41,315 nt of DNA from a virus: the IMG/VR virus record IMGVR_UViG_3300045988_066741; one strand, written 5' to 3'. The notes under the pieces are model-generated. The model did not search any database. It was not told where the DNA came from and saw nothing but the letters and a program-made list of their open reading frames with translations. The translations under genes were made by a program, and so were the position numbers. This document shows positions 18,810-22,953 of this stretch, one piece after another. The number at the start of each line of letters is the position of its first letter. The stretch's first letter is position 1.

Positions 18810-18861
18810 GTGTGTTTGTGCTAGTATTTGACTTCGTCATCAAATGCTAGCCCTTTTTTTT
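18810..18861 (+). ncRNA. Candidate ~50-nt small RNA ending in an intrinsic terminator
   Basis: 12-bp stem 18820-18831 / 18840-18851 (one G-U pair), 8-nt loop, CC, then T8 (18854-18861). This is a plus-strand terminator geometry, although every flanking gene is on the minus strand. The promoter lies about 7 nt upstream of the predicted start. Confidence 0.4.
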
Positions 18862-19111
18862 ATGCCCTCTCGTGTGCCTCGATGATCTTCTTTTCGCTCA
18901 GTCCAAGGCACCCGATGGCTCTTTTTGTCAGCATGAACCGTCCGCCGCCTATGCATTCCAGTCCTTCTGCCTCTATATCTGACAGGAACCTGTTCCACAG
19001 TTTCGTTGCGGTCTTGTACCCGCAGTCCATGAACTTCTGGAACTCTTTTTTGTTCATGTAGCCGCGGATCAGCATCCTGTACCTGAAATCTTCCAGTCTT
19101 TCTTCGCTCAT
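18860..19111 (-). CDS. Hypothetical early protein
   Basis: 83-aa ORF in the operon context. No motif recognised with confidence. Confidence 0.5.
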   Translation of the reverse strand: MSEERLEDFRYRMLIRGYMNKKEFQKFMDCGYKTATKLWNRFLSDIEAEGLECIGGGRFMLTKRAIGCLGLSEKKIIEAHERA

Positions 19112-20227: not shown

Positions 20228-20375
20228 TCTTCTTGTCCTCCTTTTTGTTTGCCATCTGCTCTGCGCAGGCTATGAAGCCTTGAAGATATGCCATAGTCTT
20301 CTGATCAAGGTTGTCAGCCTTTCCGCTGAAGTATTCTATGGACTTTTTTTTGTCATCGCGTTTTGCTTCACCCAT
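20190..20375 (-). CDS. First gene of the early operon (hypothetical, 61 aa)
   Basis: ATG at 20375 follows AAGGAGATAAAT. Lies downstream of the near-consensus promoter. Confidence 0.5.
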   Translation of the reverse strand: MGEAKRDDKKKSIEYFSGKADNLDQKTMAYLQGFIACAEQMANKKEDKKNEDLNPNDTDRG

Positions 20376-20416
20376 ATTTATCTCCTTCTCTGTTACTTTT
20401 CGTAACTTCTGAGACT

Positions 20417-20445
20417 ATTATAAATTCTTATCGTATTTTCGTCAA
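20417..20445 (-). promoter_or_regulatory. Early lytic promoter
   Basis: On the minus strand: TTGACG (20445-20440), a 17-nt spacer, TATAAT (20422-20417). A GTTAC-N5-GTAAC inverted repeat at 20392-20406 lies in the leader. Confidence 0.7.
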
Positions 20446-20509
20446 CTAGAAAAGTTGCAATTCTTTACTTTCTGACATTTTATGCTATTATCTATTCAGG
20501 GAGGATAAA

Positions 20510-20869
20510 ATGAAGGGCTTTAATGAAAGAATGAAGGAGCTCAGAAAAGCCTTAGGGCTAACCATGGAAGAGTTCGGCAGTAAAATAGGAATGACGAAGG
20601 CCTCTGTATCTAGGCTTGAGGCTGGCATAAATGGCGCCTCTGAGCAGACTATTAGATTGATTTGTTTGACTTGGGGTGTTGATTACTTCTGGCTGACTAA
20701 TGGCACCGGAGAGATGTTCGTTGACTCTATGGATTACCTAATCGACGAGTTAGCTGCGGAGAAACACTGGAAGCCTGAAACTGTTAAGGTCATGAAAAGG
20801 CTGTACTCCTTACCACCGGAGCAGTTTGATCTTGTTTGTAAGGTTATTGATTCAATGGGCGACAAATAA
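20510..20869 (+). CDS. XRE-family HTH repressor without a peptidase domain
   Basis: 119 aa. HTH segment LRKALGLTMEEFGSKIGMTKASVSRLEAG. Divergent from the early promoter. SD AGGGAGG. Confidence 0.85.
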   Translation: MKGFNERMKELRKALGLTMEEFGSKIGMTKASVSRLEAGINGASEQTIRLICLTWGVDYFWLTNGTGEMFVDSMDYLIDELAAEKHWKPETVKVMKRLYSLPPEQFDLVCKVIDSMGDK

Positions 20870-20915
20870 AAAAAAAGAAGAGCAGTAGCTTGTTTCGCTA
20901 CTGCTCTTCTTTCGT
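20868..20915. terminator. Bidirectional intrinsic terminator
   Basis: 13-bp perfect stem GAAGAGCAGTAGC (20877-20889) / GCTACTGCTCTTC (20897-20909). A9 lies upstream (U9 for minus-strand transcripts) and TTTCGTC downstream. Confidence 0.8.
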
Positions 20916-21050
20916 CATGGCACCTTTGTCTGCTACCTGCGTGTGTTTGTGCTGGTGCCGTATCTCAACCAGAGCCCGTGTATAATGGCATACGTTCTGC
21001 GTAGACCTTCCGGGCTCTGGTTGAATCATGAACTGGATTTGTTCCATCAT
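20898..21050 (-). CDS. Unannotated 50-codon ORF (or a structured RNA) between the two repressor genes
   Basis: Own translation: MMEQIQFMIQPEPGRSTQNVCHYTRALVEIRHQHKHTQVADKGAMTKEEQ. GAGAGGAG lies 7 nt before the ATG at 21050. There is a strong promoter upstream, and the stop falls inside the terminator stem. Confidence 0.4.
   Translation of the reverse strand: MMEQIQFMIQPEPGRSTQNVCHYTRALVEIRHQHKHTQVADKGAMTKEEQ
20965..21024. repeat. 14-bp perfect inverted repeat with a 32-nt spacer
   Basis: TCAACCAGAGCCCG (20965-20978) and CGGGCTCTGGTTGA (21011-21024). Confidence 0.9.
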
Positions 21051-21078
21051 ATGCTAGCTCCTCTCTTGAGACCCTTAG

Positions 21079-21106
21079 ATTCTAGCACTTTCGAGAATTG
21101 TGTCAA
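21079..21106 (-). promoter_or_regulatory. Near-consensus minus-strand promoter
   Basis: On the minus strand: TTGACA (21106-21101), a 16-nt spacer, then the extended -10 TGc-TAGAAT (21087-21079). Confidence 0.65.
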
Positions 21107-21110
21107 CCTT

Positions 21111-21141
21111 TTAGATTATTTTTTATTTGTTGTGCTATAAT
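21111..21141 (+). promoter_or_regulatory. Promoter of the S24 repressor-integrase operon
   Basis: Extended -10 TGcTATAAT (21133-21141), 35 nt upstream of the ATG. The -35 is weak. Confidence 0.55.
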
Positions 21142-21176
21142 CTTTTTGTAACCTTTAAGATTAGGAGGATTAAATT

Positions 21177-21788
21177 ATGAACGAATCTATGCGAGATCTG
21201 CTGGCTCAGAGATTGCCTGAACTTTTGAAAAAATCCGGGGCTTCCCGCAAGGAACTAGCGGCTTTCTGCGGCGTTTCAGAGAACACCGTTTCTGCCTGGG
21301 TGCGCGGACTGAAGACTCCGCGTCCTGAAAAGATGTCCAGGCTTGCGGAGTTCTTTAATATCAAAGCTACCGACCTTATAAGCCATTCTTTAGACAGGGA
21401 GCTGCATCCCGTACGCTTTCTTCCGCTTATCTCACCTAACGGCGCCATTGTTGACTCTACCGTTCCAGGCAGCTATGGTGCTCTGTCCGAGGGAATAGAT
21501 GCCGACTATGTATGGATCTGCCCGGATGATTCCATGCATTCCGCGGGCATCTGTCGCGGGGATGTGTGTCTGATCAAGGGTTCCAGCGCTGTCCGTGCTG
21601 GGCATCCTGCTCTGATCGTGCTGGACGGCTGCACGATGCTCCGCTTCCTGGAACAGTTCGAATCCGCCATGTATATCCGTCCAGCGTATCCTAGCCAGCA
21701 GGGAGCTCTGCTCACGGGAGACTGGTCTTCCAGGCTCCGTATTCTGGGCTATATCAAGGCGCTCAGGCGCGAATGGAGGCGAGGATAA
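21177..21788 (+). CDS. LexA/CI-type repressor (XRE HTH plus S24 peptidase domain)
   Basis: N-terminal HTH RKELAAFCGVSENTVSAWVRG. The C-terminal segment ICPDDSMHSAGICRGDVCLI contains the S24 serine motif, and a Lys occurs in LGYIKAL. Confidence 0.85.
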   Translation: MNESMRDLLAQRLPELLKKSGASRKELAAFCGVSENTVSAWVRGLKTPRPEKMSRLAEFFNIKATDLISHSLDRELHPVRFLPLISPNGAIVDSTVPGSYGALSEGIDADYVWICPDDSMHSAGICRGDVCLIKGSSAVRAGHPALIVLDGCTMLRFLEQFESAMYIRPAYPSQQGALLTGDWSSRLRILGYIKALRREWRRG

Positions 21789-22898
21789 ATGTCTGTATCT
21801 AAAGATAAGAAACGCGGCACCTGGCTTTATCATGGCTATTATCGAGATGCTACGAATGCGCGCCGGCAGTACTGCCGTCGTGGCTTTGAAACAAAACGAG
21901 ATGCAAAAGAGGCAGAGCGTGCCTTCCTGGAGGCATCTGTCAAGGTTCGCCCTTCCATTACCCTGGACGAGCTGGTTCTTCGATATCACGAAGAATACGA
22001 GATCATGGGAATCAAAGAGGCGACCCTTATATCAAATGAAAGCTATTATCGCAATCATATTCAGAAAAGTCTGGGAGGTGTTCAACTCTCAAAGTTTACC
22101 GCTCCGCTTGTCACACAGTTCATGTCCAGCGTTGCAAAGCGTAAACAAAAAGACGGCACTCCCTATTCTGTTGCAACGATCAACAAAACGAAGGAAGTGC
22201 TGTCTAAATACTTGAGCTATGCCATGCGTCTTGGCTTTATCGACTATAACCCCTGCATGGCCGTCGGTCGCTTCAAGCGTCCATCTGATTATAACACAAA
22301 TGCGCCGAACTTCTGGGAAGTGAAGACGTTTAAATACTTTCTTTCCTTTGTGGATGATCCTTTCTGGGTGGACGTGTTTACGTTCCTCTTTGAGACGGGC
22401 GTACGAGAGGGGGAATTCTTCGCCCTGCAGTGGTCTGATGTTGATCTTGGTGCTGGAACACTCAGCATAAAGAAAACTCTAACTTATAAAACTCTTGGCC
22501 GTGGCTGGGCTCTCACGTCTCCAAAGACGAGGAATTCAATCCGCCGTATTGATCTGCAGGATTCGCTCCTGGAGCTCCTGCGTCGCCGTTACGCTGCGTC
22601 TTCCTGCGTGGATGGATTCTCGTCCGACTTCTTTGTGTTTGGCGATGTAGCGCCTATGTCGCGTCAGAAACTGGCTACAACTCTAGACAGATATATCAGG
22701 CTCACTGGTGTTCCGCGTATCACACCTCACGGCTTCCGTCATTCCCATGCATCGTATCTGATCCGTTCTGGAAAGATAGACGATCAACTTATCGCTGACC
22801 GTTTGGGCCACACTGTCGAAGAAATGCGCAAGACATACGCTCATATTTACGAGGAGTCCAGGCATGATCTGAAGTCAATTCTGAATGAAATATTCTGA
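21789..22898 (+). CDS. int: Tyrosine integrase with an N-terminal arm-binding domain
   Basis: C-terminus HGFRHSHASYLI...LGHTVEEMRKTYAHIY (R-H-R-Y catalytic set). N-terminus KRGTWLYHGYYRD...RRGFETKRDAKEAE. The ATG abuts the repressor stop. Confidence 0.95.
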   Translation: MSVSKDKKRGTWLYHGYYRDATNARRQYCRRGFETKRDAKEAERAFLEASVKVRPSITLDELVLRYHEEYEIMGIKEATLISNESYYRNHIQKSLGGVQLSKFTAPLVTQFMSSVAKRKQKDGTPYSVATINKTKEVLSKYLSYAMRLGFIDYNPCMAVGRFKRPSDYNTNAPNFWEVKTFKYFLSFVDDPFWVDVFTFLFETGVREGEFFALQWSDVDLGAGTLSIKKTLTYKTLGRGWALTSPKTRNSIRRIDLQDSLLELLRRRYAASSCVDGFSSDFFVFGDVAPMSRQKLATTLDRYIRLTGVPRITPHGFRHSHASYLIRSGKIDDQLIADRLGHTVEEMRKTYAHIYEESRHDLKSILNEIF

Positions 22899-22899
22899 T

Positions 22900-22921
22900 T
22901 TTGTGTATCATTTGTGTATCA
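22900..22921. repeat. Perfect 11-bp tandem duplication at the convergent junction (candidate attP element)
   Basis: tttgtgtatca at 22900-22910 and again at 22911-22921, immediately after the integrase stop. Confidence 0.35.
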
Positions 22922-22927
22922 CGAAAA

Positions 22928-22953
22928 GGCGCCAGGTTACTTTTCCTGGCGTT
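22928..22953 (+). terminator. Hairpin terminator after int
   Basis: CGCCAGG (22930-22936) / CCTGGCG (22945-22951), followed by a T-rich tail. The right arm lies within the 3' end of the convergent gene. Confidence 0.5.

Follow-up and report, generated by a model that had tools for sequence, protein, structure and literature searches.

A conserved small protein gene facing a LexA-fold regulator in an Erysipelotrichaceae-associated phage

In phages P2 and 186, the repressor is co-transcribed with the integrase gene (int) and faces a divergent small protein, Cox opposite C-int and Apl opposite CI-int, that sets the switch and the direction of excision; Cox and Apl, both DNA-binding, have about 87-91 amino acids (aa) and head the lytic operon. 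MOR is a protein of about 72 aa with a helix-turn-helix (HTH) fold, encoded by the first gene of the lytic operon, and phage GIL01 encodes gp7, about 50 aa long, which binds the C-terminal domain of LexA and serves as a co-repressor of the host LexA. In the CI-MOR systems of TP901-1 and phi13, the small protein binds the repressor without proteolysis (PMC7250872, PMC11149083). In modules of a transcription factor (TF) and a small open reading frame (smORF), the TF activates the smORF, and Silpe et al. 2023 described a module in which the smORF, oriented counter to the TF gene, inactivates cI without proteolysis (VqmA-Qtip type; PMC10432266). Here we describe a small minus-strand gene in the 307-nucleotide (nt) gap between two HTH-type genes of IMG/VR virus record IMGVR_UViG_3300045988_066741 (41,315 nt; "the window" below means this whole stretch), where an original prediction, made from the letters alone, had proposed a hidden transcription unit. 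Comparison with related loci identifies it as a real, previously unannotated protein gene, whose sequence family is new although the style of phage switch is known, and indicates that the window genome itself carries a copy knocked out by a 2-nt deletion.

The layout recalls each of these systems in part. As in TF-smORF modules, the gene of an HTH regulator adjoins a counter-oriented small ORF without homologues or recognisable domains (in those modules about 130-150 nt away and often unannotated), the small ORF is the probable output of the module, and the module stands apart from the main cI/PR switch. As in the TP901-1 and phi13 CI-MOR pairs (PMC7250872, PMC11149083), regulator and small gene stand back-to-back with a short stretch of operators between them. 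Like LexA and lambda CI, the regulator combines an N-terminal HTH with a C-terminal LexA-fold beta domain, and a regulator-int operon faces a divergent small gene, as in P2 and 186.

In the window, the gap on this evidence holds a genuine monocistronic gene with its own near-consensus promoter and strong terminator, laid out as follows.

21079-21106, minus strand: small-gene promoter, TTGACA (21106-21101), 16 nt, TGcTAGAAT (21087-21079); 11/12 match with extended -10
21060-21067, minus strand: Shine-Dalgarno sequence GAGAGGAG, 9 nt upstream of the ATG at 21050
20898-21050, minus strand: small ORF as read here, 50 codons; codons 1-10 native, the remainder out of frame
20864-20913, minus strand: intrinsic terminator of the small gene, a 16-17 bp stem (20873-20913) followed by a T-run (U-run in the RNA), with the ORF stop inside the stem
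20965-20978 / 21011-21024, no strand: perfect 14-bp inverted repeat

The promoter, the 50-codon ORF, the inverted repeat and a plus-strand TGcTATAAT at 21133-21141 all lie where the original prediction had put them, and the conserved minus-strand transcription unit that it proposed for the gap is genuine. Two of its details needed adjusting: the ribosome site and ATG are both present with a spacer of 9 nt rather than 7, and the hairpin that encloses the ORF stop ahead of the T-run has a stem of 16-17 bp rather than 13. In sum, it placed the gene correctly but erred on the product, the RNA structure and the trigger.

We collected more than 30 related loci from viral, genome and metagenome collections and compared the ORF product in 22 of them. 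A small minus-strand ORF occupies this position in every locus fetched (30+). Close relatives encode MMEKIQFMIQHMSPEGLRRTYAIIHGLWLRYGTGTNTRR, a protein of 39 aa, and lineages whose regulator is 40-65% identical encode clearly homologous small proteins of 41-53 aa, such that the small protein is conserved across all related loci examined, down to 40% regulator identity. ORF nucleotide identity across lineages is only 47-67% under protein-level purifying selection, with a pairwise ratio of nonsynonymous to synonymous substitution rates (dN/dS) of 0.12-0.47 in most pairs and dS saturated. The expression signals are conserved as well: a minus-strand promoter was found at the matching position in all four of the divergent lineages that were scanned (scoring 12/12 for L014 and 9-10/12 for L018, L020 and L022), a TTGACA-17-TAAACT match can be read by eye in L032, purine-rich GGAGG-type ribosome sites precede the ORF in other lineages, and the terminator is 100% identical in 13 close relatives. 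In public records the family amounts to 13 clusters, all "hypothetical" or unnamed. A genome-collection scan returned one true locus, in Erysipelotrichaceae bacterium 7770_A6, and one Pseudogracilibacillus match, lying in a non-phage region, that we rejected as spurious; a DNA search of phage GenBank records gave nothing useful.

The AlphaFold2 (AF2) model of the small protein is a two-helix hairpin (predicted local distance difference test, pLDDT, 83). The grand average of hydropathy (GRAVY) runs from -0.4 to -0.9 and net charge from 0 to +4, with about 0 to +2 in most lineages. The protein is thus predicted to be a two-helix, non-membrane protein of 39-53 aa, and with amphipathic predicted helices and negative GRAVY it does not look like the small hydrophobic transmembrane peptide of a type I toxin. 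In an abundant lineage whose regulator is 40% identical (L031-L034, about 3221-3345, minus strand; P0038), no in-frame ATG, GTG or TTG precedes an invariant internal Met, and the ATG at the ideal Shine-Dalgarno distance is out of frame (ATG GGA TAG). The codons upstream of that Met look protein-constrained, showing a synonymous GAG/GAA change and a conservative K/R change.

Relative to all 22 of the loci examined, the window has 2 nt fewer in the 3' arm of the inverted repeat, which shifts the frame after codon 10 and leaves 40 of the 50 residues out of frame.

21011-21024, no strand: site of the 2-nt loss; on the plus strand relatives read CGGGCTCATGTGTTGA, the window CGGGCTCTGGTTGA
20933-21017, minus strand: native-frame remnant, ..SPEGLRRTYAIIHGLWLRYGTSTNTRR followed by a stop, cut off from the start codon and matching the relatives' 39-aa protein

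Comparison thus identifies the small gene as knocked out in the window genome, and the 50-aa peptide, which had been taken for the product, as the frameshift product of a rare allele in place of the different 39-53 aa product that relatives encode. The loss also turns the arm 21011-21024 into the exact complement of 20965-20978. The perfect 14-bp repeat, described as a feature of the unit, exists in the window and is peculiar to the rare deletion allele, being absent from relatives; the 50-aa peptide and the perfect hairpin are, by this comparison, two outcomes of one mutation. We infer a template-switch event of the quasipalindrome-correction type, a natural example that also knocks out a gene. 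In all relatives the inverted repeat is imperfect, and it is the two missing bases that make it perfect.

The window allele, found on 4 contigs, is a real allele rather than an assembly slip. A second, independent 2-nt deletion occurs in another sublineage (CAGAACGTATG to CAGAGTATG; L024 and L025, 3001-3153) and was seen in 2 sequencing runs. Intact 39-aa alleles are found on up to 135 contigs each, the four commonest on 135, 86, 35 and 16. An exhaustive HMMER search with the 50-aa peptide returned only itself and two repetitive long proteins (11 and 7 matched stretches), taken as spurious, and dual coding or programmed frameshifting into the window's frame was ruled out by stops in that frame in four divergent lineages. 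Experiments should use the intact allele from relatives, since what this one genome encodes is a mutant peptide. The six contigs with a frameshift allele are all excised and circular, and the intact-allele loci with a scorable int-distal junction comprise 7 integrated and 4 circular. Fisher's test gives p = 0.03 for frameshift allele against circular form if contigs are independent; the six represent only two independent mutation events, so that the association is not significant.

The small gene lies among three plus-strand genes, which are the only ones on that strand, with nearly all others on the minus strand.

20510-20869, plus strand: XRE-type HTH repressor, 119 aa (Pfam HTH_3), transcribed divergently from the early lytic operon (start at 20375)
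21177-21788, plus strand: HTH regulator with a LexA-fold C-terminal (beta) domain and without a conserved Ser-Lys dyad
21789-22898, plus strand: tyrosine integrase, its first base directly after the stop codon of the regulator

The relatives reveal which of these genes belong together. Homology of locus L001 to the window starts exactly at 20870 and ends at about 22927, and 13 relatives show 88-100% conservation from the terminator through the small ORF, promoter region, regulator and int to the 29 bases that follow, with high nucleotide identity across the small unit in close relatives. The XRE gene and early region, by contrast, are replaced: XRE variants only 43-75% identical stand beside an unchanged module, placing XRE outside the portable part. 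The terminator of the small gene doubles as the end of the XRE transcript and as the left edge of the conserved module. Small-protein divergence follows the regulator and int, not XRE; between L009 and L001 the small protein is 95% and XRE 49% identical, and between L009 and L014 the values are 49% and 76%.

The right edge is set by prophage junctions. In integrated copies, phage homology ends about 29 nt 3' of int (about 22927; window about 22899-22930), beside ssrA/smpB, and attP therefore adjoins int and does not lie in the 307-nt gap, a location that these junctions rule out. By this comparative evidence, the small gene, its dyad operators, regulator, int and attP edge are one portable, co-inherited block, with XRE swapped independently; any link between small gene and XRE is weakened accordingly. 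The prophage flank of L004 (7723-8150) holds a transfer-messenger RNA called by ARAGORN at 7790-8150 (tag ANNNVNYAFA), next to smpB-rnr-secG. The more distant relatives L018, L020 and L031 have other flanking genes.

The divergent region between small ORF and regulator, 126 bp long, carries the following elements.

21105-21117, no strand: dyad operator O_A, AACCTTTTAGATT, overlapping the small-gene -35 and the -35 region of the regulator promoter
21150-21162, no strand: dyad operator O_B, AACCTTTAAGATT, lying after the regulator promoter and before the ribosome site; the best conserved site
21133-21141, plus strand: extended -10 element (TGcTATAAT) serving the regulator-int operon; it mirrors the small-gene -10

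The putative operator dyad AACCT-N3-AGrTT (AACCT-N3-AGATT in the window's 14-mers) occurs twice in the genome, both times in this region. The 14-mers at 21105 and 21150 are the sole matches in 41 kb, against a chance expectation of 0.12-0.2. A third copy had been proposed at 21070; it was not found within 2 mismatches, can be aligned only with a 1-nt gap and is not conserved in relatives. O_B is a perfect palindrome in divergent lineages (TAACCTTTTAGGTTA in L014, AACCTAAAAGGTT in L022, AACCTAAAAGATT in L032), and in distant lineages the dyad is kept, mainly as the copy between regulator promoter and ribosome site. In the two divergent promoters, the extended -10 sequences mirror each other almost perfectly, AGATTCTAGCAC and GTGCTATAATCT (21077-21088, 21132-21143).

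As predicted, the 14-mer motif is absent from the early-promoter region (20376-20509), and the proposal of two separate operator systems is supported, the XRE/early region carrying different dyads. Two perfect dyads lie in its intergenic region, GTTAC-N5-GTAAC and CAACT-N5-AGTTG (20392-20406 and 20443-20457), each unique in the genome, and the dyad at 20443-20457 overlaps the -35 of the early promoter TTGACG-17-TATAAT (20445-20417). By eye, with no formal scan made, no LexA (Cheo) box was seen at the small-gene promoter. We regard the small product as the probable main output of the neighbouring regulator.

The regulator itself had been described as a LexA-like S24 repressor, and its predicted fold is indeed that of LexA. 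Its AF2 model (pLDDT 82) matches LexA structures in Foldseek at E = 1e-8, and LexA C-terminal-domain entries reach template modelling scores of about 0.64-0.73, target-normalised, against it; a family profile searched against PDB matches HTH domains only. The catalytic features are another matter. In an alignment with LexA and lambda CI, the lineages have Arg at the Lys156 equivalent, or Ala in the case of P0017; 3 of 6 lineages have lost the Ser119 equivalent (to Leu, Gln or Thr); and at the cleavage site the window reads Glu-Gly where others have Ala-Gly or Ser-Gly. The Pfam S24 profile PF00717 scores 21.5 bits, below its gathering cut-off of 23.3. Because neither dyad nor cleavage site is conserved, self-cleavage in the SOS response, proposed as the trigger of the unit, is not supported, and the regulator is unlikely to act in that way.

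We therefore read the module, by analogy with TF-smORF or CI/MOR logic, as a candidate regulator/small-protein switch whose effector would be an antirepressor-type, protein-binding small protein, a reading to which we give a probability of roughly one half. A regulator dimer would bind the AACCT-N3-AGrTT dyads; at O_A, over the -35, it would shut the small-gene promoter, and at O_B it would throttle its own regulator-int transcript, an autoregulation. The small protein would then be made only with the regulator absent or inactive, that is, upon infection or induction, and might bind a protein partner as an antirepressor-type switch effector, with its own regulator or the non-cleavable XRE repressor as candidate targets.

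The differences from the described systems are also informative. TF-smORF hosts are Gram-negative with linear plasmid-like phages, whereas this is an integrating Erysipelotrichaceae phage; the TF here has a LexA fold and is co-transcribed with int, and the protein is smaller (39-53 aa against 51-60). Unlike MOR, the small protein is a two-helix hairpin from a monocistronic gene with its own terminator, and the lytic operon is under a different (XRE) repressor; we found no sequence similarity between MOR and the small protein, and no HTH family matches it. Compared with Cox and Apl, it is without a DNA-binding signature and its gene is isolated by a terminator. In contrast to self-cleaving LexA and CI, the regulator lacks a conserved Ser-Lys dyad or Ala-Gly site, scores below the S24 gathering threshold and has local operators only. 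GIL01 gp7, which differs in acting on host LexA as a co-repressor, has no entry among the PDB sequence or fold matches of the small protein.

Several observations weigh against the switch reading. In TF-smORF modules the TF activates, whereas here a near-consensus promoter (11-12/12) and a dyad over the -35 point to repression; O_A is weak in some lineages; and two lineages offer only an internal Met as small-ORF start. The small protein has no match in Pfam, PHROGs, NCBIfam, PADLOC, PDB (sequence and, by Foldseek, fold) or BFVD. XRE variants of 43-49% identity pair with the same small protein, which in this comparison argues against specific recognition of XRE. The frameshift alleles were all seen in excised, circular genomes, and the small gene is therefore dispensable for the excised or replicating state.

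The locus adds an unannotated small-protein family to the lysogeny modules of a group of Erysipelotrichaceae-associated phages, themselves known here from metagenome and draft-genome assemblies alone, along with a LexA-fold phage regulator that has given up its catalytic dyad. Induction in these phages probably departs from the lambda self-cleavage paradigm, and the module offers TF-smORF-like logic in a Gram-positive, integrating phage, with the regulatory sign apparently inverted, as a concrete candidate for SOS-independent prophage control.

The main rival, possible though on balance unlikely, is that the small protein sets recombination directionality or integrase dosage in the manner of Cox, Apl or another recombination directionality factor. 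The regulator, co-transcribed with int, would silence it in lysogens, and its expression would drive excision or prolong Int expression. The inheritance pattern favours this account, as the small gene always travels with int and the attP edge and the immunity gene is swapped, and so do the P2 C-int/cox and 186 cI-int/apl layout, the confinement of the regulator operators to this region of the genome, and the lack of a recognisable excisionase among the early ORFs scanned. However, a two-helix hairpin of 39-43 aa without winged-helix or HTH_17 signature, without a Pfam, PHROG or fold match and with a net charge near 0 to +2 in most lineages is a poor fit to a role like that of Cox or Apl; the frameshift alleles occur only in excised, circular genomes; and the differing flanks of relatives suggest different integration sites, with the protein retained nonetheless.

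A more elaborate form of the switch reading, which we hold as speculative and rather doubtful, makes the 39-aa hairpin and the catalytically dead LexA-fold regulator a self-contained toggle riding with int and attP. The small protein would antagonise the regulator and thereby set integrase expression or lysogeny commitment, and the recurrent 2-nt knock-outs, one of them hairpin-templated, would persist only as free or replicating phage. If true, the small protein would represent an antirepressor-like family not described before, and the pseudo-protease LexA fold would have been put to a new use.

The cascade first proposed for this locus, in which SOS self-cleavage of the S24 repressor frees the unit and the 50-aa peptide inactivates the XRE repressor, now appears improbable. 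The promoter, operator and terminator anatomy is as described, the XRE repressor has no protease domain and would need an external inactivator, and the regulator does have the LexA fold. Against this, the 50-aa sequence is out of frame past residue 10 and belongs to a rare allele, the catalytic Lys is replaced in all lineages and the Ser in half of them, the window's cleavage site is Glu-Gly, the S24 score is sub-threshold, and small protein and XRE evolve independently.

It is very improbable that the product is RNA, either a small RNA built on the 14-bp hairpin or a read-through transcript running antisense to XRE into the early operon. Single transcripts do fold well (z = -7.2 for the window, -6.3 for L001), the unit shares the early operon's strand and converges on XRE, and its nucleotide identity in close relatives is high. 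But most of this folding we attribute to the terminator hairpin, dominant in both predicted structures. Rfam has no match for the unit, and the RNAalifold consensus across lineages is -2.39 kcal/mol with a covariation term of -0.04, that is, essentially no covariation and no conserved structure beyond the terminator. The role suggested for the 14-bp hairpin or a structured RNA is thus not conserved across relatives, the stem being confined to the deletion allele; substitutions follow a protein-type pattern, the terminator (17 bp plus U-run) is strong and conserved, and one lineage, L018, has an extra gene between the unit and XRE.

That the unit has no function, its ORF being spurious or decaying and its promoter- and terminator-like sites due to chance or serving neighbours, is scarcely credible: database matches are none, natural frameshift alleles exist and one abundant lineage has lost the start codon, but selection acts at the protein level across lineages whose ORFs are 47-67% identical, ribosome site and promoter are conserved, and intact alleles are seen far more widely than frameshift alleles.

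Further observations concern the genome and its neighbouring genes. A 141-bp direct terminal repeat (1-141 = 41175-41315) shows the window to be a complete phage genome, assembled as a circle of about 41.2 kb, and Erysipelotrichaceae bacterium 7770_A6 is the source of the closest named protein. An early ORF of 83 aa (18860-19111, minus strand) looks by eye like a small HTH or excisionase-like protein and, with no Pfam or PHROG match, is a candidate for the real excisionase. Residues 58-69 of XRE, DYFWLTxGxGxM, are invariant in all variants despite 43-75% overall identity, and LWLRYGTGT at the C-terminus of the small protein is similar to this stretch over 11 columns, a likeness that the profile comparison does not find significant. 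Mimicry of the XRE C-terminal helices in the style of SinI/SinR was considered and rejected, with an hhalign probability of 0.7% and only that 11-column "WL..G.G" likeness. L021 (365-1487) has a tandem array of three XRE-repressor paralogues (122-127 aa) ahead of the small gene, and in L018 an extra Cys-rich ORF of 108 aa (2371-2697, plus strand) lies between XRE and the small-gene terminator, so that the small unit is not always convergent with XRE. In L020 the early operon includes a canonical AntA/ANT antirepressor gene, and a PemK/MazE toxin-antitoxin pair follows closely on int (516-1244 and 4082-4665).

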